Part shown: positions 5,980 to 61,542 of the stretch, piece after piece
How the letters are laid out: each line of letters starts with the position of its first letter
Numbering within the stretch: position 1 is the first letter of the stretch
The notes under the pieces: model-generated
What the model saw: only the letters and a program-made list of their open reading frames with translations
What the model was told of the DNA's origin: nothing
The model's database searches: none
Made by a program: the position numbers and the translations under genes
Assembly (NCBI RefSeq): GCF_006345805.1
Contig: NC_043001.1
Coordinates: 3,906,001-3,970,000, forward strand
Source: Octopus sinensis
Taxonomy: Eukaryota
Direction: 5' to 3'
Length of the DNA stretch: 64,000 bases

Positions 5980-6305
5980 TTCTGTTATAAGTACAAGGCC
6001 AAGGCCTGACATTTCAGGGAAGAGATCTGGTCAAGAGCATTTAACCCAGTGCTCAAATAGGGCTTACTTTGTCCACCCTGAAAGGATCAACAACCAATTC
6101 CACCATGGCGGCGTTTGAAGTAAAGATGGATAAAATGCAGCTCCAGCATTATACAATTATTTCTACTTGAAGCACGTTGCCATACTTATTTCGTCGAACC
6201 TCAAAGCAAGAAAGGCACAGTCAACGTAGGAGAAATTTGAACTCAGAAAACTGACGAAATACCCCTATAAACATTCTGCCCGGCATGTTAACGATTCTGC
6301 CAGAT
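5980..6305 (-). mobile_element. Decayed family A SINE copies (tail-B type)
   Basis: Contains ccctgaaaggat, aaaggcacagtcaac, atttgaactcagaa and acgattctgccag, which are reverse-complement matches to the family A body and head. Confidence 0.6.
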
Positions 6306-6309
6306 CGGT

Positions 6310-6762
6310 TCTACAGCAAATATTCTACTCAATACCACAGAATTACTTGTCAATCGTTCGATCATAACCAATTGAGCATGTCCCTTAGTGGCTAATGGTA
6401 TGTGCATCTCTAATCAGGAGCAGAAGTACGGGGGTAGCATCATAGCCATGTGTTGAAAGGGATTATGTAGGGTTTGGATAATTCACCTTTGTAAACATGG
6501 CTGTTTCGTTCACCATCCTTAAACAACCATTATTTAGGGACCTTTTGAGCGGGATGGCTACCCGACCTGAAAATTCTAACTGGGCCCCACCAGCAGGGTC
6601 ATGAACTGTTTATCTCGATATCATATCACCGTGTCGTGCACATATGGTTGTGATGTATGTGCCTGGTGTATCCTTATCGGACAGGCAAGTCCTGTTGTGT
6701 ATATTGTGTTTTGTATATTTGTATCCTAGTGTCACTTTATGGCCTGAACTGCTCTCTCACTC
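6310..6762 (+). mobile_element. Non-coding interspersed repeat ending in (AAT)n (family C), 5'-truncated
   Basis: Reverse-complement match over ~450 bp to 16695-17150; ends ctgctctctcactc followed by aataatgataat. Confidence 0.85.
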
Positions 6763-6805
6763 AATAATGATAATGATAATAACAACAACAATAATAATAA
6801 TATAT

Positions 6806-7160
6806 ATTTCTTTACTACCCACAAGGGGCTAAACATAGAGGGGACAAACAAGGACAGACAAACGGATTAAGTCGATTACATCCACCCCAGTGCGAAACTG
6901 GTACTTTATTTATCGACCCCGAAAGGATGAAAGGCAAAGCCGACCTCGGCGGAATTTGAACTCAGAACGTAACGACAGACGAAATTGACATTTTGGCGGG
7001 GAGAGGACTAGTCGATTACATCGACCCCAGTGCATAACAGGTAATTAATTTAACGAGCCCGAAAGGATGAAGGACAAAATCAATCCTGGTGATATTTGAA
7101 CTTAGAACGTAGAGACAGCCGGAATACCTCTAAGCATTTCGCCAGGCGTGCTATCATTTC
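6806..7160 (-). mobile_element. Family A tRNA-SINE, tandem partial dimer
   Basis: Two successive body copies (cccgaaaggatgaa, atttgaact[c/t]agaacgta); tail A at 6806-6870 and a partial tail B at ~6988-7015. Confidence 0.9.
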
Positions 7161-7177
7161 TACTAGATCTCCACATC

Positions 7178-9932: not shown

Positions 9933-11143
9933 TTTCACGCCTTTTGTTCTTAGGTTGTTTCGCAACTTTTCAATTGTCTTCTCAATTGTCTCATCTCTGA
10001 ACACGTTCCAATCACTATCAATGGATAGCTTGAAGCAAACCAGCGACAACACTCTGACACACTGCAAACTTTCTCGTCTAGTTTGATGCTTAAAAGTAAA
10101 TGATGTAACTTTGCAAGTAATTTACTTCGTATTATTCCGTATTACTCCGTATTGCTTCGTATTCACCAATTATTTCCCATTGTTTTGTCAATTTAATATG
10201 TTATTGTTATCTTCCTTTCAGTTCATCACGGAACGTTCCGCTAATAATAGTCATTATTGTGATTAATATTATGTATAATAATTTCTTTTCATTTAAAACT
10301 TGAGTAGGTTCATAGAACGGGGTGGGGGTGGGGGATAGTGGAAGAGAGTAAATTAGATTCAAGTGACACAATATATTACTGGTGGGAATATTCGGGAGTA
10401 TTCAGAGAAAGACAATGGCACCTCCCCTGGGGTAAGAAAAACACGTTGAACCCAAAATATATTAACGGACGATTTCGTGACGCTAGTGCTATGGAAATAA
10501 ATACACGTACATAAAAAGGAACACATACATACAAACATATATACATACGTAACTACATATATAAATACATAAATACATACATATACGCATGTATAACTGA
10601 AACTATTCGACATTAGTGTAGCTGGCATTGGTACACATGCGGCAAACTGGCAGACTCGATAAAGTGTTGGATGAAACATCATTCAATATTCAATCCGACT
10701 CTGTGCCGTTTCGGTTCTAATCCCGCCTAAGTGGGCTTTGCCATTCATGGTTTCGGAGATGACCAAATGTACTGCTAACAAGATTCTAGTGGTTCCTCTA
10801 CTAACAACAACAATAACTTCATAATGATGAGGAAGGCGACGGCGACGATGATGATGGAGATGATAAAGATGACGACGACGACGACGACGAATAGGAGTAC
10901 GACGTTGAAGACAGATTCTCCGACAATTTCGTAGACGTGTATTGGGGTCTTCGCTCAACTGATTTACCTATGCGGTGAAATATGGTGTGGGGTGACTGAG
11001 TATCCCGTAGACATGAGAAAACTTAATCTATTCTGAAAGAGAGTCAGTGTTATGTCGCATTCGACAAAGCTGAACTTTTGAATCCCTGGGTCATTTCTAT
11101 GGACCGCCTCCCAAGTATTTTCAACCTGTTCCTTTACATTATC

Positions 11144-11363
11144 TATTTCTTTACTCCCCACAAGGGGCTAAACACAGACAGGACAAACAAGGACAGACAA
11201 ACGGATTAAGTCGATTAAATCGACCCCAGTGCGTAACTGGTACTTATTTAATCGACCCCGAAAGGATGAAAGGCAAAGTCGACCTCGGGGGAATTTGAAC
11301 TCAGAACGTAATACCGCTAAGTATCTCGCCCGGTGGGCTAACATTTCAGCCAGCTCGCCGCCT
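11144..11363 (-). mobile_element. Family A tRNA-SINE, near full length (tail A)
   Basis: The minus strand reads aggcggcgagctggctgaaatgttagc...ctgagttcaaattcc (B box)...gcctttcatcctttcggggtcgatt...tttagccccttgtggg. Confidence 0.9.
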
Positions 11364-12186
11364 TTGTTCCATTACATTATCAAAGCTTACAGTGTTATGA
11401 AACTATGGTAAAATGACACTTGCTAAAGATACCAGGCGGTGGGATCGAACGAAGAACAACGTGTTGCGCGAATCACACTTATTAAAGATTCGCTCTTCCT
11501 GTATCCATAACAACAATAACAAGACTAAAGAATGTAACCCATCGACTGAAGCATAGAACGAAAAAGAGTACAAAGCTAATCTTTTAAAAGGCAGAATAAA
11601 AAGGAACGGAAAATATGAAACAGTGTATTTCAGAAAATTATGCAAGGCAGAAAGCAAGGAAAAACCCTTTGATGATTAATACTGTGCCAGAGTAGGAAAA
11701 TAACAACAGAACATCATGAATCACAAAACTAGCTTCAAAACCTCCATGTTTAAAAGCTGAGATTGAAGTCCGTTAGATCGCAGTACAAATCAGTGTTTAT
11801 TCTCTAAAAGCTATATGAAAATTGATAAAAGGCGATCGCATACGATCTCATATGATTATATATTATAACATGATCAGGTGGAAAATATTGCATCACGTAG
11901 ATATGCTCTACACTGCGTTGGTAAACAACGGCGCTAACACAGTCAAAGCAGTGGACAGATATTTAAAGGTAAACTATGCAAAATCTTTATACTGGTACCA
12001 GTAACAAGTGGAACGAGCACAAAGCTGGGTTGGCCCTATCTGGAGTGGGTCTACGTGTGTTTGCTATTCATGCTAGCAATAGCAGTAACGTCTCCTACAA
12101 GTCACACTTTAAAAGTCACGCCCTTTAAAATAAATGATATTTTGAAGGGTGGGGTCTTAATGATGGTTAATCAGAAGGGATAGTTA

Positions 12187-12605
12187 AAGCGGCGAGGAGC
12201 TGGCAGAAAGGTTAGCACGCCGGCCGAAATGCTTAGCGGTATTTCGTCTGCGGCTGCGTTCTGAGTTCAAACTTCACCGAGGTCGACTTTGCCTTTCATC
12301 TTTTCGGGGTCGATAAATTAAGTACCAGTCTCGCACTGGGATCGATGTAATCGACTTAATCCGTGTGTCTGTCCTTGTTTGTTCACTCTGTGTTTAGCCC
12401 CTTGTGGGTAGTAAAGAAATAGGTATTTCGTCTGCCGTTACGTTCTGAGTTCAAATTCCTCCGAGGTCGACTTTGCCTTTCATCCCTTCGGGGTCGATAT
12501 ATAAAGTACCAGTTACGCACTGGGGTCGATGTAATCGGCTTAATCCGTTTGTCTGTCCTTGTTAATCCCCTCTGTGTTTAGCCCCTTGTGGGTAGTAAAG
12601 AAATA
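12187..12605 (+). mobile_element. Family A tRNA-SINE with tandem duplication of body and tail
   Basis: Head gagctggcagaaaggttagc, B box gagttcaaa, central gcctttcatcttttcggggtcgataaattaagtaccag, tail to gtagtaaagaaata (12421); the body restarts at ggtatttcgtctg and runs to 12605. Confidence 0.92.
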
Positions 12606-13636
12606 AGTTAAGTAGAAGCGATGATCACTGCCAGAATGTCCTTTACTCATGCATCGTTTTATTTAGATTCGATCTGGAAATAAAAGACAAGAATAGGAAC
12701 AATACAAGATGGCCACTATAGCCTGCAAAACCAGTTGCATTTTGCGGCAGCAGTAGGAAGGCCAGCAGCTTACAAAGTGTTGTGTATGGCAACTCTTAGA
12801 AGATACTTATCTGGAATTAGTGTGAGAAAAGTAAAAGCGAACCATTTGGGTATTAAAACGGTTTCTCAAAAGATTTTGCTCAAAAGTTATAAAGACCGAC
12901 TGTAAATGTCAAACTTTTAAATTCTATGCAAACATTTCTTGAGATCCTAGGAAATTCACGGATCCGATAGCATCTTTGGTAGGCTTCCAACTGTCTATGA
13001 CAGACTCTAAATATTAAATATTTCGGAGATACGCTATTGATATTAAGTTTAAAATATTTAATATATCTTTCATCTCTATCTGCAATACATCACTTAACGG
13101 AATTCTTAAATCAATTCTATCTCTTGTGAAAATATTCTATCATATTCTTGGCTATTTACGTTATTCACGGATGAATTTCGGACCAGAATTTATTGTATCA
13201 AAATGGCGTTTAGTTTCGAGCATAATTAGATATAAAGTAACTGAGGCGAACGGAAACAGAACTAACTCAAAATAAAGTATAAATGTAAATGTATTCCTAA
13301 GTATTCAATAAGACTGAGGGGGAAATGCCCCGATGTGGGCAGAACATGCTAAATAGAAATATATGGGAAGTTTTAATCGCAGTATTATAATGAAAAAGAG
13401 AGATTTAAAAAAAAATGTCTAAGCAAAGAGTAAATAAAACAACCTCGTAAGATGCTTTTTATCTGAACGCAAATAAAGGCAAAAGATGCAATTTTATTTG
13501 GTTAACTATATGGAAGATACAGAAGATTCTGTATTAAAAAGCATCCACTCTTTACTGATAACTCACAAAAACATCCTGACGTCTTATTAAGACTTCTCAA
13601 GAGAATATTTAACTTGTCACAACTATTGTTGATCGT

Positions 13637-15030: not shown

Positions 15031-16227
15031 ACACATATATATGAACTAGGAGAATTCCCTTTTTTCTTACTTCCAACCTTATTATTACCAATATTCAATT
15101 CAGTAAACTACCAAAGGTTTCATTCCCCGTGTAACTGACGACTTCAAAATTTCGTAATTGCTGTCAATTTTTTTCCTTGCAAAGTTATGATCATCATCAT
15201 TGTCGTCTTCGACATTATTATTACTATTGTTGTTTTTCATGTTGTTGTTGTTGTTGCCTTTGCACAACTTCTAACGCTGGAGATGTACTACAGTGTCAGC
15301 TGGTCCCTACCAGTGAACTAAGGTAACATATCTTAATGATGTCACCATCATTGGCTTCTGTTTCATTACCACCGTTATTCACAATATTTTGTGTTTTCAT
15401 TGTCCCTCATATGAGGTAGCGGTTATCAGGTTGAGCAATTACCAGTGATTTTATCGTGACACCATCATTTGATGTATCATTAATCAGCCCGTAAGGAGAC
15501 TCCACCCGTTTCCTTTCATTATTATTATCATAATCATCACTGATATCAATGCTATTATTGTTTTTATGTGTAGTATTAGCACTAGTTGCAGCAGCAGCAA
15601 CAATAGCAGGGCTGTGTGTGCTGGTTAGTGTGGTAGTTGGGCCTCAGATTCCTGTGCTATCATAGTAGTAGTAGTTGTAGTATTATTGTAGTATTAGTAG
15701 TATTTAGTAACAGTAGCTGCAGCATATTATCATTATTTTTTTTTCCATTATCACCATCAGCACCACCATCATTTTAGTAGAATAGTTGGGCAGCAGATTG
15801 GTGAATAGATCATAATGTACAGCTCAGCGTGGACGGACGCTAGTCAAATGGGCTCCACGTAGGTTGGCCACTTTTACATGTTTAAAACTCCTTCTTATCA
15901 AATATTTTGTTTTTAATCTTTGTGCAAAATCATTCACTAAAAAACTTGAGAATTTTTCACGTATAATTCCGCCCCTGTATGGGCGAAATTACCAAACTTT
16001 TTCAAAACTTTCGCGATTTTTTAGCCAATATATATCGCACACATTTTATTTGATTTGTGTAAAAAAATCATATACATTGTTCTAAGAAATAATTTATTTA
16101 ATTTCTTTAAAATATTCTTTTATTTTATTCTGTAAAATCAACTCATTCGTTAACCAACTCATTTGCATACGCGCAAGTCGTTGTAGGATCGACTACTTAC
16201 GACTAGCTAGCGCGCACCGGGTCCAGT

Positions 16228-16228
16228 C

Positions 16229-16299
<71 letters not shown>

Positions 16300-16382
16300 T
16301 AGTTTTATTTTTATAGCGTGCTTTCACTTCACTACCGAGCGCAGCTCTGTGTGCCTTGAGCATGTGCTGTGATTTGTTGTGA

Positions 16383-16383
<1 letters not shown>
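16228..16383 (-). mobile_element. 3'-UTR remnant of Dong/R4 family B with (AAT)n tail
   Basis: 16296-16383 is the reverse complement of 52033-52120 (the 3' UTR of the Dong copy), followed on the minus strand by (AAT)n at 16228-16296. Confidence 0.9.
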
Positions 16384-16426
<43 letters not shown>

Positions 16427-16691
16427 TCTTATTTCAATTGTTTCGTTTATTGCTGAGCGTCTCCCCAACACCTAGGGTAAAGAAGCTCACTGTACAAATT
16501 GGTAGGCCATCAAGATAAATACGCTAAATTGTTCACTTGCAAAGTCATATGATACAAAAAAGGGGAAGAGCGAGGAAAAAGGGGGAAGGGTAAAAAGAAA
16601 GAAAGTAAGGCGAAGCAGGAAAGAAAATTCCAGTGGAAATGGTCTTCTTCTTCTTCTTCGTCTTCTTCTATTTCTTCCTATTAGTATTTTT

Positions 16692-17251
16692 ATTATTGAG
16701 TAAGAGAGCAGTGCATGCCACCAAAGTGACACTGGGGTAAAATATACGAAGCCCAGTATACCTATCATGACTACCCGTCTAATAAGGGTACACCAGGCAC
16801 ATGCATCACAACAATATGTGCACAACATGGTGATCTCATATCAAGATAAACAGCACATGACCTTGCAGGTGGGGCCCAGTTAGAATTTTCTTCTGGTCGA
16901 GTAACCCATCCCGCTCAAAAGGTCCCTGAATAAGGGTTGTTTAAGGATGTTAATCGAAGCACCCATGTTTCCAGAGGTGAATTATTCAAATACCTAAGAA
17001 TCCCTCTCAACACACGACTATGATGCTCCCCAACCACTTCTGCTCGTGATCATAGGTGCACATATCGTCAGCCACTAAGGGAGATGCTCAACTGGTTAAG
17101 GTCAAACAACTGACAAGCAAATCTGTGGTATTCAGCAGAATATTTGCTGTAGTCCATCTTTAACACCAAGACAAAACAATGTACCTGATAACACTTGCAA
17201 TCAGTTAAGATCAGAAGACACGAGAGCCACTGTCTCGTATTGCATCAGGGC

Positions 17252-17256
<5 letters not shown>
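16692..17256 (-). mobile_element. Non-coding ~560 bp repeat (family C), apparently full length, flanked by (AAT)-type tracts
   Basis: Matches 6310-6762 in opposite orientation, with a decayed copy at ~35933-36285. ATT-type tracts lie at both ends (short and imperfect on the left). Confidence 0.85.
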
Positions 17257-17282
<26 letters not shown>

Positions 17283-17321
17283 GTTATTATTATTATCATC
17301 ATTATTATTATCATTCTATAA

Positions 17322-17353
<32 letters not shown>

Positions 17354-18169
17354 TATATATATGTATGTATATATATATATATCTACATACCTATCTACCT
17401 ACAAACGTACCTACCTACGAACCGACATACCAACCTACAAAAAGTACGTACGTACGTACCTGCCAGCCTACCTACCTACCTATGTACATACATACATAAA
17501 TACATACATACATGCATACATACACATACATAAATGCAGAAATACATGCATACGCATACAGAAAAGTAATAAAAAGTAAATGCGCTTTTACATGTTTATA
17601 TCATTGAATTCTTTCCAAAGTATATTAAGTCAGTGGAATAATTTCAAGACACAATAAAATGCATTGAATTGAAGACTGATTACCACAATCAAATTCTTTC
17701 GAAAGTCTTTATTACATATTGCGATATATTTGTATCAAATCCAAAATACATTTCTACAATCAAATTATTTCAAGATTATGGATTCCAAATTACATCCAAA
17801 TAATCTCTAAATATCTTATTAACCTTTTCAATATCCATGATTACAAAAATACATCAAAGTTCATAATTTCAAATTGATTTCACTTCCAGCCCTCCCAATG
17901 CTCATGTTCAATGGCTTTCTACTTGCCTTCCTTTCACATCCGCTGAGGGAAGTAGAAGTTGCCTCATTGCAGATTCACTACGCTAGAAGGGAATCATACA
18001 GATTACGTTATTAAATCCAAATGGTGCAGGGAGGTAAATATTTGTACTTTTACTTATTCAAAACTATAAGAAGGTATAATAAAGTTCTATCTTTAAGAGA
18101 TGAGGAATTATGAACATTAGTTACATTATTTACCTTTGATGGATATTTGTCCTCATCTTCTTTGTGGTT

Positions 18170-18215
18170 AAGACAACGTTTCGGCTGATGTACCATTCAG
18201 CCTTCATCAGGTGTC
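18170..18215 (-). ncRNA. Minimal type I hammerhead ribozyme motif (family H inverted arm)
   Basis: The minus strand reads GACAC-CUGAUGA-A-GGCUGA(augguaca)UCAGCC-GAAA-CG-UU-GUCUU: intact core, 6 bp stem II, palindromic stem III. The 3' strand of stem I deviates from the GUGUU of the other copies. Confidence 0.7.
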
Positions 18216-18329
18216 TCGGGAAATTTCGAACCTGGGTTCTCATTCCCAAAGCATAGTGGTTAAGAGCGCAGGCTACTGACCCCAAGATTCCGAGTTCGAT
18301 TCCAGGCAGTGTCCTGAATAATAATAATA

Positions 18330-18361
<32 letters not shown>

Positions 18362-18368
18362 AGTAATG

Positions 18369-18405
<37 letters not shown>

Positions 18406-18409
18406 TAAC

Positions 18410-18495
<86 letters not shown>

Positions 18496-18550
18496 TACTA
18501 ACATCGAAAAATACCTTAGGAATGAGAACCCAAGTTCGAAATTTCCCCAA

Positions 18551-18596
18551 GACACCCGAGGAAGGCTGGAGGGTATATCAGCCGAAACGTTGTGTT
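18551..18596 (+). ncRNA. Hammerhead motif with mutated core (family H copy 1)
   Basis: GACAC-CCGAGGA-A-GGCUGG(aggguata)UCAGCC-GAAA-CG-UU-GUGUU; CUGAUGA is changed to CCGAGGA. Confidence 0.6.
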
Positions 18597-18799
18597 AACA
18601 ACAAACAAGATGAGGACAAATATCCGTAAATGTAGATAATGTAAATGATATATAAGAGGGTATATACCTGATGAGTCTTAGAAAATAAAGTAGAAGCAGG
18701 TGCCAATGTTAGGTTAATGATTGAAATCGCTTTTCTATTTTACTATTAAAACGTTTCTTTTATTGTTTCATTGTTGTTTTTATCATATTTTCCGCATAT

Positions 18800-24077: not shown

Positions 24078-24229
24078 AAGTTGTGATGAGATTTAGGCAC
24101 AATGATGCAAAGGTCACTGGTTGGAATCGAACTCGGAACCGAACTCTTAATCACTACACCTTATGCACGTGGTTAAGAACGTGGGCTACTAACCACAAGA
24201 CTCCGAGTTCGATTCTAGGCAATAATTTC

Positions 24230-24275
<46 letters not shown>

Positions 24276-24287
24276 GTGATAATGATG

Positions 24288-24341
<54 letters not shown>

Positions 24342-24343
<2 letters not shown>

Positions 24344-26162
24344 CGGGTATAAAATGTTTGATAAAAATATAAATCATCTCGTTTACATGGATGATTTAAA
24401 GCTGTTTGCAAAAAATGATCAACAACTCAAGGGCTTACTAGCGATAGTCAAACAATTCAGTGACGACATCAGAATGCAATTCGGCCTCGATAAATGTGCA
24501 AAGGCTACCTTTATCAAAGGAAAAATGACAGAAACATCTAACGTTAACCTTGACCAACAGAATGTCATAAAAGAACTAGACCCAGCGGAGAGCTACAAGT
24601 ACCTAGGGGTAATTGAAGGGAACGGAATAAGTCATTCAGAGATGAAGGAAAGGATCAGGAGAGAATGCTATCGAAGAGTGAGAGCAATACTCAAGACAGA
24701 GCTGAATGCAAGAAACAGGATCGAAGCAATCAATGCATTAGCTATACCAGTCGTAACTTACAGTTTCAATATTGTTAACTGGTCAATTACTGAAATATGT
24801 CAGCTCGACAGAAAAATAAGGAAACTGTTAACAATGCATAGAATGCACCACCCTAAGGCAGATACAGAACGACTCTATCTGCCAAGAAAAGAGGGAGGCC
24901 GTGGTCTTTTGCAACTGGCAATAACAATGAAGATTGCTACAATTGGCCTAGACACCTACCTGAAAAACTCTGAGGACTGGATGTTAAAACTTGTCTCAAA
25001 ACATGAAAACAAGAAAGCATCATACTCAGTCACAAAACAGGCAAAGGAATATCTAAGTGAATTCCGAATACAACCAATTTCGGAATTAGAGATAGATATA
25101 CAAGAAACAAGCACAGAAAAAGCTAGGCGCATGAAAACCCGTGCCAAAACTGCGGCCTTAGATATTCTGAATAATAAATGGCAAGAAAAACTATCTATGG
25201 CAAATACCCAAAGAGAGCGAATAATGCAGATATCGACAAAGCCCTGACCCATCAATGGCTAATGGCCTCTGGCTTAAAATCTGAAACAGAGGGGTTTATC
25301 ATAGCAGCTCAAGATCAATGCCTACCAACAAGAAACTACCAGGCCAACATATTAAAGATCAGAAGCAGTCCAACGTGTCGTGTATGCAAGCAACAAAATG
25401 AAACCATTGACCATGTGGTCTCCAAGTGCAGTCTTCTAGCGCCTACAGAGTATCTCAACAGGCACGATAGAGCTGCACAATATATTCACTGGGTAATCTG
25501 TAAAAACCTGGATTTGCCCCATGAAAAAAAACTGGTGGGAACACAAACCACCCCCAGTGCTTGAAAATGACCACATCTCACTCCTCTGGAACTTCACCAT
25601 TCAAACTGACAGGAAGATAGATGCAAATAGGCCAGACATCATATTGAAAGACTTCAAACAAAGAACATGCCTCCTCATTGATATGACTGTACCAATCGAT
25701 ATAAACGTATCTGTCAAGACCTACCAAAAACTGAGCAAATATAAAGATCTTGAAATAGAAATCAGCAAAATGTGGAAGCTGAAGACTAAAACAATACCTG
25801 TTGTCATAGGTGCCCTGGGAATGATAGCAAAAGGGGCTGATAGCTACCTAACTCAGATACCAGGAAACCCAAAAATGGCAGAAGTTCAAAAGATAGTGTT
25901 CATGGGAACTGCTCATATCCTACGCAAAATACTCTCTATGTAATCTCAAGGTTTAAAACAAACATAATTTTCGGTTTAAAAAAAAAAAAAAAAAAAACTT
26001 TTTTTTTTTTTTAGACATTCATTAGTACAACATCCCCACCCCCCAAATATATGGCACACTAGGCATAACAACAACATGAACTTCCAACCCTGTTGTCTCT
26101 TGAGGTCTCTGGGTGAGACTTGGAGCCAACTTGTACAAATATAAAGCAAAAGTCAAACATAG
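24342..26162 (+). mobile_element. R4/Dong-clade non-LTR retrotransposon, family A, 5'-truncated and frameshifted
   Basis: RT motif YMDDLKLF, thumb YKYLG/GGRGL, CCHC CRVC..ETIDHVVSKC, RHD and restriction-like endonuclease RPDII..LIDMTVP..K.SKY across three frames to the stop at 25943; 3' UTR followed by (AAT)n; (AAT)n on both sides. Confidence 0.93.
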
Positions 26163-26246
26163 AATAATAATAATAATAAATATAATAATAATAATACCAT
26201 CCAAAAATACCTTAGAAATGCGGACCCAGATTCAAAATTTTCTCAG

Positions 26247-26292
26247 GACACCTGATGAAAGCTGGAGGGTATATCAGCCGTAACGTTGTGTT
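26247..26292 (+). ncRNA. Hammerhead motif (family H copy 2), GAAA mutated
   Basis: GACAC-CUGAUGA-A-AGCUGG(aggguata)UCAGCC-GUAA-CG-UU-GUGUU. Confidence 0.6.
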
Positions 26293-29248
26293 TACAAGAA
26301 ACAAGATGAGGACAAATATCCCTGAAGGGTAAATAATGTAGATAATGTACATAATTCCTCATCTCTTAAATATAGAACTGCATTACAATGATGCTAACAA
26401 ATGGATTAGAACTCAATGTAAGTTACTGAAATAAACTCATAGTGATATATAATGTGCATCCGAGTTTAAAGTCGTTGGCTATTCTGCTAATTAGGTTGTG
26501 AAAACACAATATATTTGGAAGAAGAAGAGTGATCCTGAGAGGGATATTTGAGTATATTTCTTATTGCAACTAATTAGGAACCATGAGAATTATGAAATGT
26601 TACAAATACATTTCAGATTTGCGTTCATAAAGTTTGAAACCACAAAATCAAAATTCAAGACACAAATGGTGGAATATGTAAAAATAAAGAAATGTTTAAA
26701 GAATCACAGAAATAAAGGAAACAGTCTTAAAATTAATAAACCTCCAATGGATGCTATCTTGTCTGCCATGCATCGAATTTCATCCTAATCCTCATTCGGT
26801 GCGACAGAAAAGCGTTTAACATTAGACAGATGTAGAACTAAAATCAACCGTGTTCAGTATTATGAAAATTTACACGAAACAATTCATTAATATATATGTA
26901 CATAGATACAAATGGATATATGTGTTTGTGCGAGTGTATATGTATGTGTGTGTATGTGTATATGTGTGTGTGTGTGTGTGGTACTTATATGCATATAAAC
27001 ATAGGTAAAGAAATAAAGCCTGTTATCGAGATCATTTGAGCAATACCGAAAGTGTCAGCTCGTTTCGATACCAACATCTGACATCATTTTCCCACTATGT
27101 AGCGGAATGTCAAGAAATTGCCCCTAGAAATTAGAGGACGACAGATAAAAATGTGTCAGGATTAAACATTCATCTTACTTTCAAAATGTCATGATGAGGA
27201 CTGTTATTGACGCCAGATTCTATAACTACTACTAGAAATTGTCGTTTAGCAGGAATGTTCATGATATTATCAATATCATGAAAGCTATTTTTGCCATTCT
27301 AAATTCATGAGATGCTGCTGGGAATATTGCAAGCATTTTTCTTCTAAAGTGTCCTAGATTTCCATCAAGTGTCATGGAATTGTGCTATATATTAATAATG
27401 TATAACTCTATTTGCTTTAAACATCTTAACTGAAAAAAAAGAAGAACTCGTGAATCAATAACGCATGGCGAAATGACTCTTCTGGATCCTGTGAACCAAT
27501 TGTATCAGCGCCTCTGCTTGTATTGTTGGCGATAACAATGGCAGAGAGTTCAAAACCTATTCAGAATTGACAGAATCCAAGCTGAAAATGAAATTCACCT
27601 GAGCCATGCAGCGCATAGGAACTTGATGTACGAATATAAAATCAATAAATATCTTGTTGAAATAACAAGTAAACGTAAGACATAATGACAAGAGGAATAC
27701 AATAGATTGAAGAAAGATAGTAAGCAATATATCCTGTTGGGGTGTTGGAGAATTAAGTTAAAGAATCTCATGTGAAGGATGTTTTTGGAAACAGAATCAA
27801 CGTAAATGGATACACTTATCAGGATACCACACTATGTCATTACATCTTTAATCAGTCTTAAAATGTAGGAATAGTGGGCTGCGATTAATTGTCTTCGGTA
27901 CAAAATCTACAGCTAGCAGGGTGGGAGCAAATTCTGGCGTTATGCAAATCATGTTTGGACTGAATAAGTTAAGGAGAATGGCAACCTTTAGGGCGCTCAT
28001 GCTGTTTCGTTAAACCTGCAATGCTCTACGACTAGGAGCTTAACGACCATCAGGTAAAATTAACTGATACGTTTTCTAGATAACAGTCTATCTTTCTTAT
28101 AAATTTAGCCTCAAAACAAGATTTCAAAAAGTACTTATAAGTCAAGAACCAACTGCAATTGTTTTTCTTTTTTTGTTTTTATTTTTCTCGTTGGAAGGGA
28201 TCCATGATTAGCGGTGTTCGTCATTTTTGTGACAGACACAACATCCATAGGTACGCATTATGCAATATTTCAAGGGTTATCTTTGAAATGGTGTGGAGTT
28301 ACGTGTTCGCTATTCAACTGTTACGTCTAGCAGGTCGACTGGGCCGCTTAAGGCTTCTTATTGGGTCGAGATAATAAAAATGGCACATTTGGGGATACAG
28401 TGGTTTCATTTTCAAATGGTAAATGTTAGGAGGAGCATCGAGCATTAGAAATGTTCGCGCTTGTTCTCACAATATCCAAGTTTTCTTATATGATCTCACA
28501 TATCCCTCCATGAAAATAATGACAACATACATAAATATGAATTTGACAAAATCTGTAAATCTATTTGAAATATATTTAATCCATACAGCAAAGTTATAAT
28601 AACTAAGTTTCATTCTGCTGTTTCTTTCATTTCCGAAAATAAAACGTGCAAAGGTATAGCTTTGAAGGAAAGCTATGAAATATATCTAGTGACCAGAAGC
28701 ATGGATCTTGAGCAATAATTGAAATTTAATATCATGAATTTGTGGTAAATACCACAGAGTGCAACTATGAAGCGAGAGGGTTAACAGCAATTTAACATGA
28801 TTTTACTTCATTAATGTCCTCAAGGAAAAGTATGAATGACAACATTATCCTATCATTTCCAGCGTTCTTCTCCAAATACCAAGTTTCCTATCGATATAAA
28901 ACGTTCTCATTATCATGGATGAACCATCATGTAATAAATGCGAACATGTAATAAAGGATTTTCTGTGCATTTATCTGATTGTACGTACCTATAAATACAG
29001 AGCCGCTTCTCAATAAACACACACAAGAACAGGAGTAAAAAGGGTAAATGATTATGCATATGGATATGTGTGTATATGTGTATAGGTACAACGTATACAT
29101 GTGTGTGTGGTATATGTATATATATGTATAACTATATATATGTGTGTGTGTGTGTGTATTTATCTACCTGTCTATCTACATATCTATCTACCTGCCTATC
29201 TATCTATCTTTCTACTTATCTATCTATCTATCTATCTATATATCTATA

Positions 29249-43309: not shown

Positions 43310-44862
43310 AATATTATTATATATATATATAGTATATATATATAGTTATCCGTAATAATGAAGGGTGATGAAATTAATTAATTTGGAAAAATTATCAATT
43401 ACACCAAGTAGTCTCGGCATGTGTAAAAGCCTCATTCGAGGAAAATTTAAGTCCTACTAAGCAATAAGGGTTTAGCAACGAGTGCCTTACCAATTACCGA
43501 ATTTTTAGAAATACAGTCAAAGGGTGATAGCTGTTTCTTCTACATAAAAAAGGGAGATCTCAGTATAAAGCAGCATTGGGAAGGCAGCACAAAACAGTAA
43601 GAGAGAATGAATTGACTGCAATCTATCATTACTTTTTTTAGTTATCCACGGCGTACGTTTCGAAATATCAAGTTTTAGGAAAGCATAAGAATTCAATATT
43701 TAAAATATTAAATAATTTATCTACCGAAACTTCGGTTTCTCTTCAGCGTAGAATACTATAATCATAAATGTATTTATATTGAATTTTGAGATACCAGAAG
43801 GCACCAACTCAACTCAGTATCAGAGCGAGCTAGAATCCGCCAAACTGGTATCACCGAATTCAATTTGTGAATGAAACGATTGTGTGGGTCAACAGCACCC
43901 TTCCCACCCGCGTGTTGTAGCCAAAACAAGATGCTGTGGTCATCTACTGAGATAAAATATAGTTATCCGTAATAATGAAGGGTGTGAAATAATTAATTGG
44001 AAAAATTATCAATTACACCAAGTAGTCTTCGGCATGTAAAAGCCTCATTCGAGGACAAATTTAAGTAATACTAAGCAATAAGGGTTTAGCAACGAGTTGC
44101 TTACCACATACCGAATTTAGAAATAGCAGTCAAAGGGTATAGCTATTTCTTCTACAAAAAAGGGACGATCTCAGTATAAAAACAGCATTTGGAAGGCAGA
44201 CACAAACAGGTAAGAGGAATGAATTGACTGCAATCTATCATACATTTTTAGTTATCCACGGACGTACGTTTCGAAATCAAGTTTTAAGGAAAGCATAAGA
44301 ATTAAATATTAAATATTAAATAATTCTATCTTACCGAAAATCTTTTCTCTTCGCGTAGAATACTATAATCATAAATGATTATATATTGAATTTTGAGATA
44401 CCAGAAGGCACCAACTCAACTCAGTATCAGAGCGAGCTAGAATCCGCAACTGGTATCACCGAATTTCATTTGTGAATGAAACGATTGTGTCAACAGCCCC
44501 TTCCCACCCGCGTGTAGCCAAAACAGATGCTGTGGTCATTACTGAGATAAAATATGGTTTTCCGTAATAATGAAGGGTGAAATTAATTAATTTGGAAAAA
44601 TTTTTCTCAATTACACCAAGTAGTCTTCGGCATGTAAAAGCCTCATTCGAGGGAAAAATTTAAGTAATACTAAGCAATAAGGGTTTAGCAACGAGTTGCC
44701 TTACCACCATACCGAATTTAGAATAGCAGTCAAAGGGTTATAGCTATTTCTTCTACAAAAAAGGAGAGATCTCAGTAAAAACAGCATTTGGAAGGCAGAC
44801 CAAACAGGTAAGAGAGAATGAATTGACTGCAATCTACATATCATTTTTTTAGTTATCCACGG

Positions 44863-44965
44863 ACGTACGTTTCGAAATAAAGTTTTAAGGAAGGGAAAGC
44901 ATAAGAATTAAATATTAAATATTAAATAATTCTATCTTACCGAAACTTCTTTTCTCTTCAGCGTA
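44863..44965 (-). ncRNA. Type I hammerhead motif in an array monomer (left arm; also ~43652-43750 and a mutated copy at ~44262-44357)
   Basis: The minus strand reads UACG-CUGAAGA-GAAA...UUUC-GAAA-CG-UA-CGU. Confidence 0.7.
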
Positions 44966-45973
44966 GAATACTATAATCATAAATGATTATATATTGAATT
45001 TTGAGATACCAGAAGGCACCAACTCAACTCAGTATCAGAGCGAGCTAGAATCCGCAACTGGTAACCGAATTCAATTTGTGAATGAACGATTGTGTCAACA
45101 GCCCCTTCCCACCCGCGTGTAGCAAAAACAAGATGCTTGGTCATCTACTGAGATAAAAATGGTTATCCGTAATAATGAAGGGTGAATGAAATTAATAAGT
45201 TGGAAAAATTATCAATTACACCAAGTAGTCTTCGGCATGTAAAAGCCTCATTCGAGGAAAATTAAGTAATACTAAGCAAAGGGGATTTAGCACGAGTGGG
45301 AACGGTGTTGGTGAGTCTGCGCCTCTGGTATCTCAAAATTCAAATCTATATAACATATGATTATAGTCATTCTACGCTGAAGAGGAAAAGAAGTTTCGGT
45401 AAGATAGAATTATTAATATTTAATATTTATTCTTATTCTTTCCTGCTTCTTAAAAAGATTTCGAAAACGTACGTCCGTGGATAACTAAAAAAATGTATGA
45501 TAGTGATTGCAGTCAATCATTCTCTCTTACCTGTTTGTGTCTGCCTTCCAAATGCTGTTTTTACTGAGATCTCCTTTTTTTGTAGAGAAAATAGCTATAC
45601 CCTTTGACTGCTATTTCTAAATTCGGTATGTGGTAAGGCAACTCGTTGCTAAACCCTTATTGCTTAGTAGATTACTTAAATTTTCCTCGAATGAGGCTTT
45701 TACATGCCGAAAGCTACTTGGTGTAATTGATAATTTTTCCAAATAATTAATTTCACCCTTCATTATTACGGATACCATATTTTATCTCAGTAGATGACCA
45801 CAGCATCTTTGTTTGGCTACACGCGGGTGGGAAGGGGCTGTTGACACAATCGTTTCATTCACAAATTGAATTCGGTGATACCAGTTGCGGATTCTAGCTC
45901 GCTCTGATACTGAGTTGAGTTGGTGCCTTCTGGGTCTCAAAATTCAATATATAATCATTTATGAATAGTATTC

Positions 45974-46071
45974 TACGCTGAAGAGAAAAGAAGTTTCGGT
46001 AAGATAGAATTTATTTATATTTAATATTTAATTCTTATGCTTTCCTTAAAACTTGATTTCGAAACGTACGT
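45974..46071 (+). ncRNA. Type I hammerhead motif in an array monomer (right arm; also 45373-45474 and a mutated copy at 46580-46676)
   Basis: UACG-CUGAAGA-[GAAA..AAGUUU..AUAGAAUU / AAUUCUUAU..AAACUU..UUUC long stem II]-GAAA-CG-UA-CGU; predicted GUA cleavage after 46068. Confidence 0.75.
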
Positions 46072-46865
46072 CCGTGGATAACTAAAAAAATGTATGATAG
46101 ATTGCAGTCAATTCATTCTCTCTTTACACCTGTTTGTGTCTGCCTTCCAAATGCCTGTTTTTACTGAGATCTCCCTTTTTGTTGTAGAAGAAATAGCTAT
46201 AACCTTTGACTGCTATTTCTAAATGCGGTAGTGGTAAGGCAACTCGTTGCTAAACCCTTATTGTCTTAGTTTACTTAAATTTTCCTCGAATGAGGCTTTT
46301 ACATGCCGAAGACTACTTGGTTGAATTGATAATTTTTCCAAATTAATTAATTTCACCCTTCATTATTAAGGATAACCATATTCTTTATCTCAGATAGATG
46401 ACCACAGCATCTTGTTTTGGCTACACGCGGGTGGGAAGGGGCTGTTGACACAATCGGTCATTCACAAATTGAATTCGGTGATACCAGTTGCGGATTCTAG
46501 CTCGCTCTGATACTGAGTTGAGTTGGTGCCTTCTGGTATCTCAAAATTCAATATCATAATATTTATGATTATAGTATTCTACGCTGGAGAGAAAAGAAGT
46601 TTTAGGTAAGATTAGAATTATGAATATTTATATTTAATTCTTATGCTTTCCTTAAAACTTGATTTCGAAACTACGTCCGTGGATAACTAAAAAAATGTAT
46701 GATAGATTGCAGTCAATTATTCTCTCTTACCTGTTTGGTCTGCCTTCCAAATGTGTTTTTACTGAGATCTCCCTTTTTTGTAGAAGAAATAGCTTATAAC
46801 CCTTGACTGCTATTTCTAAATTCGGTATGTGGTAAGGCAACTCGTTGCTAAACCCTTATTGCTTA

Positions 46866-46901
<36 letters not shown>

Positions 46902-48614: not shown

Positions 48615-48889
48615 ATCAAAATAAGCAAGGATTTATATGGATAATACCATACACAATTCTGGTGCCTTTGACATAAGTACCATATTCATCTGAATCTAAA
48701 TTTTGCTGAACTTATAATACCATACCTTGTGTATAAATATATATAATATATATATATTATATATCCAAGTAGTCATGACAAAATCATTGTTAACATAATA
48801 CGTGAAAAGTCACCGGAGGTTTGTTAAAGCAATTTGCTGCCATGGAGTAGAAATGATATCATAAATTGCATTCATCAAACTTTATAACA

Positions 48890-49086
48890 CAGTTCTATAT
48901 TTAAGAGATGAGGAATTATTTGCATTATTTACTTTATTTACATTTGACATATATTTGTCCTCATCTTGTTTGTTGTTAACGCAACGTTTCGGCTGATATA
49001 CCCTCCAGGCTTAATAGCATATGGCGTAGTGGTTAAAAGCGCGGGCTACTAACCCCAAGATTCCGAAATCGATTCCAGGCAGTGAT

Positions 49087-49176
<90 letters not shown>

Positions 49177-52100
49177 ACACACAAGGGGCTAAACACAGAG
49201 GTGACAAACAGGGACAAAAGAAGCCACAAAAGAAGCTGGATACTCACCCAAACCCGCCCAAACAGGAGTACCACCACCCAAACAAACCCTGTGGATAAAT
49301 AACATCCAAAGCAAAATAAAAAAAATTAGAAAAGACCAGTCGATTCTTAATGAATTCAGCAAACAATCAACGCTACTGAGCAATAAAAAGAGAACAAAAA
49401 TACTCCGCAAATATAACATCACAGAGAAAGATTTGCCTGAAATAAAAGAAAAGCTGAAGCAAGATATCCTTGCCAAAGCACAAAGGATCCGCCGGTACAA
49501 GAAACGCCAACGCTTCTTTGAAGAAAACAAAAAGTTCAACTCTTACCCCAAAACGTTCTACCAAGAACTGGGAAAAAATAAAATAGAAGTCACTGCAGCA
49601 CCAACGGCAGAAGAATTGGAAGAATTCTGGGGAGAAATATGGTCGGCGAACGAACCACCAAAAAAAAGGAGTATCAGAATAACAAACTCGGCATCTGAAC
49701 AACTTTGGACCCCCATAACAACTGAAGAGGTCACCCAGGCACTGCAAAAACTAAGCAACTGGAAGGCACCTGGGCATGACAAGATCCCCAACTTCTGTTG
49801 AAATATATCTACAGGAATGCACAAAAAGCTGGCTGAAAACTTTAACAACGTACTAGCAGAGCCAGAGACAATGCCTGAATGGCTCACGAAGGGGAAAACC
49901 ATCTTAATTCCCAAATCAAATGAAACAGCAAAACCAGAAAACTACAGACCAATAACCTGCCTCCCTAATATGTTCAAGGCATTTACTGCAGTGATATCAC
50001 AAAGACTGAACAAGCACCTGGGCGAAAACAAACTGTTCCCAGAAGAGCAGAAGGGATGCCGCAAAGGCTCATATGGCCGTAAAGATCAACTAATGATTAA
50101 TAAAGCCATAACTGAAGACAGCCACAGAAAGAAGAAAGGCCTCAGTATGGCCTGGATTGACTACAAAAAGGCGTTTGATAGCATCCCCCACACATGGATC
50201 CTCGAAACACTAGCCATTAACAAAGTAGCACCAACAATCATAAAATTCATAGAGCACTCTATGAATAAATGGCAAACAGTCCTACACCTCCAAACAAAAG
50301 AGGGACTCATGAAAACCAAAGACATCCCCATTAGCAGAGGAATATTCTCGGGAGACACGCTTTCTCCACTCCTTTTCTGCTTGGCACTGTCACCTCTATC
50401 TGATATGCTAAATAGAACTGGATGCGGATATAAATGTTACGGCAAAACGATCAGCCACCTTTTATATATGGATGACCTAAAACTATACGCTGCAAATGAC
50501 AAACAGCTGGAAACACTATTAAAGATAGTTCATGGATTTACCAAAGAAATAGATATGAAATTTGGATTAGAAAAATGCGCCAAAGTAACCCTGAAAAGAG
50601 GAAAACTAGTTAAGAGTAACAACATCACACTAGATAAAACCAATGAAATAAAAGAATTAGACCAAAGCCAAACTTACAAATACTTAGGAATCCATGAACT
50701 AGATAAGACATAACACACACAAATGAAAGAGAAAATAAAAAAAGAATATTATAGACGAGTTAGATCAATACTAAACACAGAGCTCAATGCTAAAAACAAG
50801 ATAATAGGTATCAACACTTTAGCTGTCCCAGTTATAAGTTACAGCTACAATATCCTTAACTGGACACGAAATGAACTGACCAAAATAGATAGGAAAACAA
50901 GAAAAATAATGACAGGATCTAGGATGCATCACCCAAAATCTGACATAGAAAGACTATATATACAAAGCATAGAAGGTGGTAGAGGCCTTATACAGCTGGA
51001 AAACTACTATAAAATAACCACCATAGGACTGCAAAAATATCTACTTCAGAAGGAAGGAAAACTGATCCAGATAGCGGCAAAACACGAGCAAAACAAAAAA
51101 ACTGTTCTCAGTATTTAAGGAAGCTGACAAATACAAACAAGAAATCATACCACCCAATAAACGTGAAGAAGAAGAAGATGAAGAAACAACAAAAGCTATA
51201 AAACAAATGAAATCCAAACTAAAAATAGAACAGCAACGAACCATGACAAAACGATGGCAAGAAAAGCCCCTTCATGGTAAATACTGCACTAAACTAAACG
51301 CAAAAGAAATAGACAAAGAAAAATCCCAGCAATGGTTGAGAAGCTCAGGACTCAAAGCAGGAACAGAGGGATTTTTAATTGCAGCACAAGACCAAAGCCT
51401 CCCCACCAGAAATTACCAAAAACATGTAATGAAAAGAAATATTACAAGTAACTGCAGAATATGTGGAGATGGACAAGAAACAATAAATCATATTATCTCT
51501 AGCTGCCCAGTCCTTGGCTAAGAAGGAATATATTCACAGACATGACAGAGTTGGAACCTACATACATTGGAAGCTATGCCAACATTATGGAATAACAACA
51601 GAAAAAAGATGGTATAGGCACACACCAGAAAAGGTCACAGAAAACGAGAAAGCAACCATACTCTGGGATATGCCGATACACACAGATAGAGAAATTAAGG
51701 CCAACAGACCAGATATAGTTGTCAGAGATCATGAAGAAAAAAAATGCTTTCTAATTGATGTATCAATACCGGCTGATGACAACGTGTCTCTAAAAGAAAT
51801 GGAGAAACTCTCAAAATACAAAGACCTGGAAATAGAGGTAATTAGAATGTGGAATCTGAAAACAGAAACAATTCCTATCATAGTAGGTGCATGAGGCATG
51901 ATAAAAAATATTCAGACAAATACATAACAAAAACACCAGGACTTACAAACACATATAACATACAGAAAATTGCACGACTAGGCACTGCACACATCCTACG
52001 CAGAACACTTTCCATACAATAACCATCAGAGCATCACAACAAATCACAGCACATACCCAAAGCACACAGAGCTGTGCTCGGTAGTGAAGTGAAAGCACGC

Positions 52101-52282
52101 TATAAAAATAAAACTACTGAACAATAATAATAATAAAAACATCGAAAAATACCTTAGGAATGATAACCCAGGTAAGAAATTTCCTTGAGACACGTCTTTG
52201 AAGGCTGGAGGTTTTATCAGCCGAAACGTTGTATTAACAACTAGCAAGATGAGGACAAATATTCGTCAAACGTAAATAATGT
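48890..52282 (+). mobile_element. Family H element copy 3, split by a Dong insertion
   Basis: Inverted 3' arm 48890-49010; complete tRNA-like head 49017-49089 (tggcgtagtgg A box); (AAT)n 49090-49173; Dong insertion; short (AAT)n; 3' region 52138-52282 with a decayed hammerhead. Flanking repeat atcaaactttat at 48874-48885 and 52283-52294. Confidence 0.88.
49217..52120 (+). mobile_element. R4/Dong-clade non-LTR retrotransposon, family B, 5'-truncated, with stops and frameshifts
   Basis: NWKAPGHD, YRPITCL, EQKGC, WIDYKKAFDS, GIFSGDTLSPLLF, YMDDLKLY, YKYLG, CRIC..ETINHIISSC, RHD and RPDIV..LIDVSIP; the ORF end is at ~52022, then a 3' UTR and (AAT)n. Confidence 0.95.
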
Positions 52283-52789
52283 ATCAAACTTTATTATTCA
52301 TACTTCCCAATGGCTTTAAAAGATGAAATCTTTTCTTATTTGAAACCTCGGTAGAGATGGGGTTATTTTCCTATCGGAATTTTCCGGTAGACGCTGCTAA
52401 TATAAATATTTCTGGAGCTAAATGCCTCCATCTAACTTACTGTTAACATACACATCAGCACATGAAAAACACACACTCATATACTAACACATATAAACAC
52501 AAACACAACACAAGCAAACACACATGTACACACAAAATACCAGTGGAGATTTATATATGAAAATGGATAGTACATATATCTAAACAATGCTGAATTCACA
52601 CGCGCTGATTACTTGGAGGAATGGTGTTCGTCTACATTTTGGATAAAACATACATATATTTCTATATTTGTAGCAGTATATGCATATAAATGTGTGTATG
52701 TATGCTCATATATATATATATATATATATACAGAGAGAGAGAGAAAGAGGAGGAGGATAGAGAGATAGGGGTAGATCGGTTGATAAATG

Positions 52790-54516: not shown

Positions 54517-54961
54517 TAAATAAAAACAGTTTGCTTTGGTCCTACCCAACTTAAAGTCTCGTGGATTCTGCACAGGAACGCAGCTCGTCAGGCTCGTGAC
54601 CTAAGCTACATTAGCTGGGTTCCTCTGCTTCGAGGAGGGAGGGAGAGAGAGAGAAAGAGAGAAAGGGAGAAAGAAAGAGATATAAATACAGAGAGAGAAA
54701 GAGAGAGAAAGTGAGTGATAAATTATTATTAGAAATATAGAAAACATTAAATTGAAAACGCCCAACGAATATATTAGACTTCATTACAATTTCATTATAG
54801 TTTAAATTATTACCATACTCTTCATCGGTTTCATATCAGGCTTTCAAAAGTGTAAAATATATGTAACTGTATCTTAGATTACGTCCTAGGTAAGCGTTCT
54901 GATAAAACCTGTTGTAAATTATAGAATATAGCTGACTATTGACATTAGTATTTGCAAACTC

Positions 54962-55079
54962 CTCCTGGGGCTACAAGCTGCAGTAGCATCCACCCTTAAG
55001 GGTTAGTCACCTTTGAGGGACAAATATACTTCACGATGTCGTGCAGCTACTGTTTATACCTCGGTCAGTAATTTATTAT
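54962..55079 (+). repeat. ~118 bp direct repeat, left copy
   Basis: Matches 57078-57196 (tagcatccaccctt.agggttag...gacaaatatacttcacgatgtc.tgcagctactgtttatacctcg). Confidence 0.9.
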
Positions 55080-55355
55080 TGCTTGTTTAAACTTTTTCGA
55101 TATCAGTGACTTTTCGTCACTGGAAAAAGATATATATTTGCAAGGGGGACCCACTTTTCATCGGCAATCGCTGATTGTTACTAATAGGTGTTGGTGGTGA
55201 TTTCTTCGATGTGAGTTGGAATCATTACACACTGATGTTGTGTGTTTGTTGTAGGTTTCCCCGCGCAGGTGAACCAGGATTCGTTGGATTGTGTAAATTC
55301 TTGAATTTCAGTCGCTGTTTCGTTTGCACCTGTATAATCCCCGTCTGCGGGAGAG

Positions 55356-56701: not shown

Positions 56702-57077
56702 ATGCAAGTAAAATTTGTATTCCATAAAAAAAAAGCACGAGGAAAATAGACTGTTAAAAAGTTTAAAGAAAAAAAAAAAAAAAAACGATAAAAAGGAAAA
56801 AAAAAAAGAAAATACAGTAAGAACGTTTAGTTGTAAAAAAGAAATCACGGTTTCGTCTCGGAGTGGGACCGAGAAAAGCGTCTCATATTCATTGTAATTT
56901 AATTCATTCTTTCATATGTTCTTTTGTTCCAGCATGTTTGCTTTGTATTCAGGACTTGTGCCTAAGATAAACTCGAGTCCGTGTGTATCATGTCAGATTG
57001 AAATGGGAAGGATGTCTTCCCTTTGCAAATACTAATAAGTCACAGAAAGTGTGTCAATAGCCACCTGCAGGAGGTGT

Positions 57078-57192
57078 CTTCCTAGAGCTACAAACTACAA
57101 TAGCATCCACCCTTGAGGGTTAGCCACATTTAAGTGACAAATATACTTCACGATGTCTTGCAGCTACTGTTTATACCTCGCTCAGAGATTTA

Positions 57193-57196
<4 letters not shown>
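57078..57196 (+). repeat. ~118 bp direct repeat, right copy, abutting (TA)n
   Basis: Matches 54962-55079. Confidence 0.9.
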
Positions 57197-61125: not shown

Positions 61126-61542
61126 TGTATATAAGTCAAAAAGAGGTAGTTATTAGATGAGTTTAGGATCAGTGCCTCCAAGGATATTAGATTTCAGAAC
61201 AGCCTGTCAAGAACTAATGATCGTATTCGATGCTTTGTGCAGGAATTCCTGAAACTACCAGACACTTAGACAAGTAATCATTATCTTCTTCATTGCCAAC
61301 AATAAATCGATAGCTTAAAATTCACAGACCTTTATAGGCCATTCAATGTTACGCTATTCTTAGTTGCCGTTTATTTGTATAGCATTCTGTCGTGTTATAT
61401 GATAACCTTTCGAAATATTGGATGGTTTGTACTTCTTGGTTTAACATTGATCGCACTGAGATTAACATAACTGTGTCTATGGGAAGCGCTCGTGGTGTAA
61501 TAATCGATCGTGGGCCTCCATATTTGCGTGTGTGTAAAGATG

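Follow-up and report, generated by a model that had tools for sequence, protein, structure and literature searches.

Two Dong/R4-type retrotransposons lie in (AAT)n tracts of the terminal repeat of a Penelope-like element in Octopus sinensis

Elements of the R4 clade known as Dong, such as Bombyx Dong, DongAg and DongBg (PMC3812793) and ostracod Dong1 and Dong2 (PMC7998251), are described in the passages cited here as encoding a reverse transcriptase (RT) followed by a CCHC motif and a restriction-like endonuclease, as inserting into (TAA)n and as leaving many 5'-truncated copies. Further passages report a 5' hepatitis delta virus (HDV)-like ribozyme for R4/Dong elements (PMC3774820) and place 'Dong-R4' among the recently active elements of Octopus vulgaris (PMC13282606). 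Penelope-like elements (PLEs) of the endonuclease-bearing (EN+) Penelope/Poseidon type are, in the portions of the sources used here, characterised by an RT followed by a GIY-YIG-type endonuclease, by a terminal repeat (pLTR) that overlaps the start of the open reading frame (ORF) and holds a minimal type I hammerhead, and by insertions with an inverted 5'-truncated arm, a one-sided tail and two end positions (PMC8557442; PAc, PMC11167929; minimal hammerheads, PMC4209133). Here we analyse a 64,000-nucleotide stretch of Octopus sinensis DNA (contig NC_043001.1 of assembly GCF_006345805.1, forward-strand positions 3,906,001 to 3,970,000; the window), in which both types of element meet. We consider it highly probable that the window holds two young Dong/R4-type elements, Dong-A and Dong-B, in the (AAT)n tracts of the pLTR of an older PLE, here called family H, that Dong likely uses any (AAT)n available, and that the resulting composites likely stay where they were formed. 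A preliminary description of this DNA had proposed that H is a separate short interspersed element (SINE) mobilised by a PLE, that it serves Dong as a preferred mobile landing pad and that H-Dong composites might move as units, which on the evidence below appears very improbable.

H is the pLTR of an autonomous RT plus GIY-YIG PLE and not a separate SINE tier, because the 3' ends of the PLE ORF run into its head, the ATG in its tail opens that ORF, and its insertions have a PLE-like shape. At one locus (L035) the H head is preceded by a degenerate ORF in which RT motifs and motifs of the GIY-YIG type were recognised, the endonuclease label being one that we presume from the motifs. A search with the 3' end of this ORF gave 2303 candidates, 40 of which were scored; 20 of the 39 non-self full matches were used, two apparent duplicates being skipped, and among the 20 copies L337 and L346 still look like a single locus. 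The ORF runs directly into the H head in 19 of these 20 copies, while in the remaining copy the head is deleted and the tail comes next. At the other end of the element, L201 was the sole case among 99 full tails in which the H tail continues into the 5' part of the PLE ORF, the tail's ATG opening 112 codons. On the minus strand of L201 the PLE 'tail' extension is present once more, as a short headless piece immediately upstream of the pLTR tail. Homologues of the ORF with 58-65% identity occur in public assemblies and carry PF00078, PF26215 and PF28514; a Pfam scan of the degenerate copy itself returned no family, and no PLE relatives were found in prokaryote genomes.

The shape of the insertions agrees with this assignment. 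An inverted arm accompanies 59 of 82 head matches (a set that includes a few spurious or other tRNA-like repeats and counts twin arms twice), the tail extension stands on exactly one side in 41 of 46 arm pairs, and the tails end at two positions, ~150 and ~176. The hammerhead core motif is intact in 82 of 144 tails, with position 7 variable (63 T, 19 A), and the predicted minimal type I hammerhead folds at stem II and the closing stem, with no Rfam match; in the window and in two clean H copies Rfam recovered neither tRNA nor hammerhead. MicroRNA-family matches from these scans were rejected as simple-repeat noise. Thus the proposal that a PLE moves H holds as regards the Penelope-like hallmarks, namely the inverted arm, the one-sided tail and the target duplications, but the status of H as a separate non-autonomous unit fails, since its head belongs to the autonomous PLE in 19 of 20 copies. 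The suggested three-tier chain from PLE to SINE to Dong is consequently reduced to two tiers, H being the PLE's own terminal repeat.

In the mechanism that we propose, most pLTR insertions of the PLE would have been short copies, each with an inverted arm, a tail on one side and a target duplication of 10-14 bp. Reverse transcription would begin just inside the ORF and run back to the RNA 5' end near the tRNA-like head, giving the short copies; initiation just within the ORF was demonstrated in vitro for another PLE, according to the part of that report used here (PMC11167929). Later, Dong proteins would nick the (AAT)n, and target-primed reverse transcription of Dong RNA would insert copies with random 5' truncation.

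Dong-A and Dong-B share about 47-55% amino-acid identity, and comparison of their 3' untranslated regions (UTRs) gave nothing beyond a 12-bp chance match, in agreement with the preliminary description, which had assigned them to separate families with distinct 3' UTRs. Both window copies have CCHC, RPDI and YKDL motifs, and Pfam gave matches to RVT_1 and zf-RVT; we take the PD..D of RPDI to belong to the restriction-like endonuclease. The solved structures nearest to the Dong insert are R2 proteins (E 1.6e-18), and W-S/T-R-E-E/D stretches were seen in the full-length copies L116 and L141, in a region that is missing from the window copies; R4/Dong elements would be expected to have a Myb/SANT-like domain, and no zinc fingers, at the N-terminus. 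A homologue search returned RT proteins without names, and the R4 class is assigned here from domains, motifs and target. With respect to that target, an AAT-like tract of at least 9 nt follows 157 of 159 sampled Dong 3' ends and precedes 66 of 75 visible 5' ends, which upholds, together with the published insertion into (TAA)n (PMC3812793, PMC7998251, in the passages cited), the earlier statement that Dong elements target TAA repeats. Compared with the known R4-clade Dongs there is no difference in kind; here at least two families (A of ~4.9 kb, B of ~4.0 kb), plus further AAT-ending families, use the same target. Exact-motif counts over the genome gave at least 3564 Dong-A ends, at least 5950 Dong-B ends and at least 8813 H tails.

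Several other repeats share these tracts. At least four more families (labelled C-F; L008, L061, L143 and L083; window 16427-16513, minus strand) end 3' at (AAT)n and stack in arrays with A and B, and are probably further Dong-like lineages. Repeat Y, a non-coding repeat of 559 bp found at many loci (in the window at 16694-17252, minus strand, and 6311-6762), lies between two (AAT)n tracts in many of its copies and may be a non-autonomous Dong passenger. Repeat X (window 6183-7170, 11140-11365, 12191-12608 and 61536-61923) is very abundant and short, often tandem or inverted and often bounded by (AAT)n. Within the 3' UTR of Dong-A, adjacent long A and T runs (25959-26014), present in most sampled A copies, could pair as a hairpin.

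The preference of Dong for H was estimated from samples. A set of 159 Dong A/B 3' ends was chosen irrespective of flank, from the 29 best non-self 3' UTR matches, the ends listed first on contig C1 and preset regions, and the background was made up of 88 (AAT)n tracts in 100 preset 10-kb regions (1 Mb), 60 of which also supplied the Dong sample. An H tail came next after 8 of the 159 ends (both arms of one twin being counted), whereas in the background it came next after 4 of the 88 tracts, with 222 of the 5329 tract bases, giving an odds ratio of 1.11 with a confidence interval of 0.29-5.2. The special landing pad that H had been taken to be was therefore not borne out. The other ends were followed by repeat Y (19), Dong-B (15), repeat X (14), Dong-A (10), other AAT-ending families (3) or nothing recognised (90), repeat X also following 10 of the 88 background tracts, and an H head precedes Dong in one of the 75 copies whose 5' end is visible. 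H accounts for roughly 4-7% of (AAT)n targets, and other AAT-flanked repeats and other Dongs are the commoner neighbours. In the window itself two of the three H copies are filled, as first described, a point in favour of the preferred landing pad; this is a local excess, as Dong was held by 2 of 30 H copies selected by tail and 2 of 20 selected by ORF. The shared orientation of the two insertions, which had also been remarked upon, is uninformative, given the AAT-like sense-strand tract after 157 of the 159 sampled ends. Against our reading, the small background (88 tracts with 4 events) leaves room for an enrichment of up to about fivefold, and H contact on either side was seen for 7 of the 88 background tracts.

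Co-mobilisation of H and Dong had been expected to show as truncation points repeated across loci. We gathered 48 joints of Dong, (AAT)n and H tail, mostly by two targeted searches, and all 48 composite 5' junctions were unique: a script comparison of 47 found no common Dong start, the 48th, at the first locus of the window (locus 1; Table 1), differs from all others by inspection, and its 5' junction occurs once in the genome. An apparent common 5' point of L217 and L218 was rejected as an artefact of alignment start, the junction sequences being different. Identity to sampled relatives is higher for the Dong piece than for the H tail in 36 of 46 composites (medians 96.7 vs 92.2%), as in the two window composites (99.1 vs 90.0 at locus 1 and 98.9 vs 86.5 at the second), which suggests that Dong insertion usually postdates H.

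At locus 1, Dong-A is the final 1.82 kb of the ~4.9-kb element, with YMDD at 24384, CCHC at 25376, RPDI at 25629 and Pfam matches to RVT_1 and zf-RVT. The head has a truncated box A and a box B-like motif that differs at one base, the minimal type I hammerhead motif in the tail (~26247-26294) has its core altered from GAA to GTA, and T-runs at 24907, 25968 and 25999 (T4, T4 and T14) separate head from tail. Such runs would terminate a transcript of RNA polymerase III (Pol III). The truncated box A, the mutated core and the intervening T-runs thus disfavour a composite Pol III transcript at locus 1, and the idea that this Dong had acquired a working upstream Pol III promoter and a downstream ribozyme is not sustained. 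The last ~740 nt of Dong-B, by comparison, are free of TTTT, so Pol III could read through short B composites, a point in favour of composites moving as units.

The same model could draw on two old inverted H twins, L146 (4327-5235) and L254 (1469-2110), in which young Dong-B 3' pieces lie in each inverted arm. At L254 the two pieces meet back to back at a short near-homology, placing the inversion point inside Dong, and the H head is gone. The Dong arms are, however, identical (106/106 at L146, 44/44 at L254), while the H arms match at 131/146 and 126/144 positions and share 0 and 1 derived changes, so the Dong pieces are younger than the inversion. Co-mobilisation was rejected for both twins on this difference in age, the H arms being 10-12% diverged; the pattern would fit double targeting of, or conversion within, an old twin, possibly by two priming events at opposed tracts.

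Other points weigh against the view that Dong came later and that composites stay in place. In 10 of 46 composites Dong is no nearer to its relatives than the tail, these being mostly older A subfamilies, and L213 is ambiguous, with a tail 97.3% identical to the consensus and a Dong piece whose best genome matches reach 95%. The 48 composites are part of probably several hundred; by the rule applied in the script, 7 of 47 have no (AAT)n 5' of Dong; at L097 an inverted H tail stands near a Dong 3' UTR with no intervening tract, which could likewise result from PLE mobilisation; and the twins count on this side as well. On balance, landing-pad enrichment and co-mobilisation are unsupported, and the nesting of Dong in H is ordinary use of Dong's known target.

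The features of the window are given in Table 1. Nesting of Dong in (AAT)n, earlier placed at 24342-26162 and 49217-52120, was found at both loci, with the second set of limits corrected in that Dong-B follows a piece of another repeat. The empty H copy had been placed at 18251-18650; it is indeed uninterrupted, but these limits leave out its inverted arm, which keeps an intact hammerhead core. Elsewhere in the window, 43336-46871 is a tandem array with a unit of ~610 bp in two opposed blocks (head-to-head at ~45300; 85-92% identity among units), and 120-bp direct repeats at 54960-55079 and 57077-57196, ~2.1 kb apart, surround several short open frames (ORFs at 55181-56503).

Table 1. Positions, in window coordinates, of the H copies, the Dong insertions and a Dong-B end outside H
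Feature	Coordinates	Strand	Details
Left target-site duplication of the H (pLTR) insertion, locus 1	24099..24108	+	10/10 match to 26385-26394
Inverted arm, locus 1	24111..24167	-	Partial copy of the tRNA-like head; internal 16-bp deletion
pLTR tRNA-like head, locus 1	24169..24229	+	Begins at head position 20; 88.7% to family consensus
pLTR (AAT)n tract, 5' part, locus 1	24230..24342	+	
Dong-A, 5'-truncated R4/Dong-type non-LTR (long terminal repeat) retrotransposon	24343..26162	+	C-terminal part of RT, CCHC and restriction-like endonuclease motifs; frameshifted
pLTR (AAT)n tract, 3' part, locus 1	26163..26195	+	
pLTR tail = PLE ORF start, locus 1	26196..26380	+	ATG at 26218; ~25-nt PLE 'tail' extension; 86.3% to consensus
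Right target-site duplication, locus 1	26385..26394	+	
Second H copy, left part	48874..49173	+	Target duplication 48874-48885; inverted tail arm 48890-49015; head 49019-49089; (AAT)n 49090-49173
Short (~45-bp) piece of a different abundant repeat	49174..49220	+	At the Dong-B 5' junction, between tract and Dong
Dong-B, 5'-truncated	49222..52121	+	Final 2.9 kb of the ~3.98-kb element; stops and frameshifts
Second H copy, right part	52122..52294	+	(AAT)n; pLTR tail 52138-52283 with mutated hammerhead core; right target duplication 52283-52294
Uninterrupted H copy	18065..18664	+	Target duplication 18065-18078 / 18651-18664; inverted tail arm 18083-18249; head 18251-18316; (AAT)n; tail 18500-18649
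Dong-B 3' end (16295-16383), piece of a third AAT-ending family and 559-bp repeat Y, stacked	16225..17315	-	At (AAT)n without H; counter-example

The consensus head of H contains motifs for box A and box B, spaced as in a tRNA and matched to what we take as the box A/B consensus. No tRNA was found by ARAGORN, nor by Rfam in the window and two clean H copies. The 5' ends of 46 of the 82 head matches fall within -10 to +17, with modes at +6 (the tRNA +1 position) and +10; 7 reach 41-233 nt upstream into the ORF end and 24 begin past +17. TTTT is absent from the head and tail consensus. It is also rare in the PLE ORF, since the sense strand of the L201 copy (2360 nt) has one T4 run among 22 runs of three or more T (T3+), two other copies being without T4 at that place, and over 9759 overlapping nt T4 accounts for 1 of 63 T3+ runs. 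For comparison, 43 of 80 metagenome PLE loci (L356-L418; longer matches, hand-picked) were reduced to 24 after removal of near-duplicates, and in the ORF pieces of these 24 controls T4 made up 169 of 506 T3+ runs as against 1 of 22 (Fisher p=0.004); none of the 11 control pieces of at least 1300 nt was free of T4. Dongs and other PLE pieces of the same genome had T4 in 20 of 79 T3+ runs (p=0.038). The paired box A and box B, in the pattern used, were present in none of the 43 control loci. A minimal hammerhead core was seen at most 900 nt downstream of the ORF match in 12 of them.

On these observations the whole autonomous PLE could be transcribed by Pol III from its pLTR promoter, the H copies being short reverse-transcription products of that RNA and the Dong nesting opportunistic. 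Although this is a tentative reading, it would be consistent with the T4 deficit of L201 relative to both sets of controls and with the promoter-like head immediately upstream of the ORF's ATG. In contrast, the deficit did not reach significance when judged by a model that preserves dinucleotides (1 vs 3.0, P=0.20) or by shuffling synonymous codons (1 vs 2.2, P=0.28), the test was conceived post hoc, after the head had been seen, one copy alone covers the 5' ORF, the final ~80 nt of L201 are cut off, and translation from an uncapped RNA would be left unexplained. In three unstranded RNA runs compared with one pLTR copy, depth was equal on both strands with no pile-up at start or end, and depth at the ORF end was about half of that at the head, close to the genomic proportion.

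Alternatively, and in our estimate with an equal and likewise modest chance, most H copies may represent a Pol III SINE born within the PLE's pLTR, with a short RNA of head, (AAT)n and hammerhead copied by the PLE protein and the ORF mRNA supplied by RNA polymerase II (Pol II), Dong nesting being opportunistic in this case too. This is compatible with the explanation that we prefer for the window, namely young Dongs in an older pLTR, and differs from it solely on the origin of the short copies. The spacing of the boxes in the consensus, the pile-up of 5' ends at the head with its two modes and the lack of TTTT in head and tail would suit it; the separate SINE of the preliminary description would likewise gain from this clustering (46 of 82) and from the excess of short H copies over ORF-bearing ones. 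However, the short form has no private sequence, head, tract and tail all being present in ORF-bearing copies, and the 7 head matches that extend into the ORF end run against it, while an imperfect palindrome at head -1..+11 might also focus inversion points. The pile-up at the head might also reflect initiation by Pol II at that site, or fold-back at this small palindrome.

From the EN+ Penelope/Poseidon PLEs the H element differs in that its pLTR includes a tRNA-like head, bearing box A and box B, and (AAT)n just before the ATG, and in that its ORF sense strand is nearly T4-free. The SINE-like Sm-alpha and Sj-alpha repeats of Schistosoma (PMC6765202) and the non-LTR retrozymes proposed as non-autonomous PLE derivatives (bioRxiv 10.64898/2026.07.22.740005) resemble H, in the passages cited, in a Pol III-type promoter beside a hammerhead and in a link to the PLE pLTR, but are described there as non-coding and often tandem, whereas H directly adjoins a coding PLE and occurs as dispersed copies that have inverted arms. 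A tRNA-derived segment inside the terminal repeat is also a feature of Helenus/Ajax and Cassandra, the passage used reporting small-RNA-derived sequence in the LTRs of non-autonomous LTR retrotransposons (PMC10886601); they are of the LTR class and non-autonomous, whereas H belongs to a PLE that has an ORF of its own. In the open-access literature searched we found neither a PLE whose pLTR is tRNA-derived nor a Dong nested in one; Repbase and Dfam, outside the scope of that search, may already describe this PLE. A tRNA-headed PLE pLTR, with Pol III transcription as a hypothesis, would thus be a possible novelty of the host repeat.

The case has a meaning beyond the window, in that a repeat resembling a SINE that borrows Penelope enzymes turns out to be part of the autonomous element itself. 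H may, although we hold this to be doubtful, be the terminal repeat of a coding PLE for whose transcription Pol III uses an internal promoter derived from a tRNA, with TTTT purged from its ORF and tens of thousands of SINE-like short copies shed from the same RNA, and so stand midway between autonomous elements and SINEs. If Pol III lies behind the T-run deficit, the element would be a protein-coding retrotransposon under a tRNA promoter, of which no example was found in the literature searched, and, if true, would offer a route for the origin of a SINE from within its own partner element. Promoter use by the PLE and cap-independent translation would become directly testable with a construct of ~330 bp.

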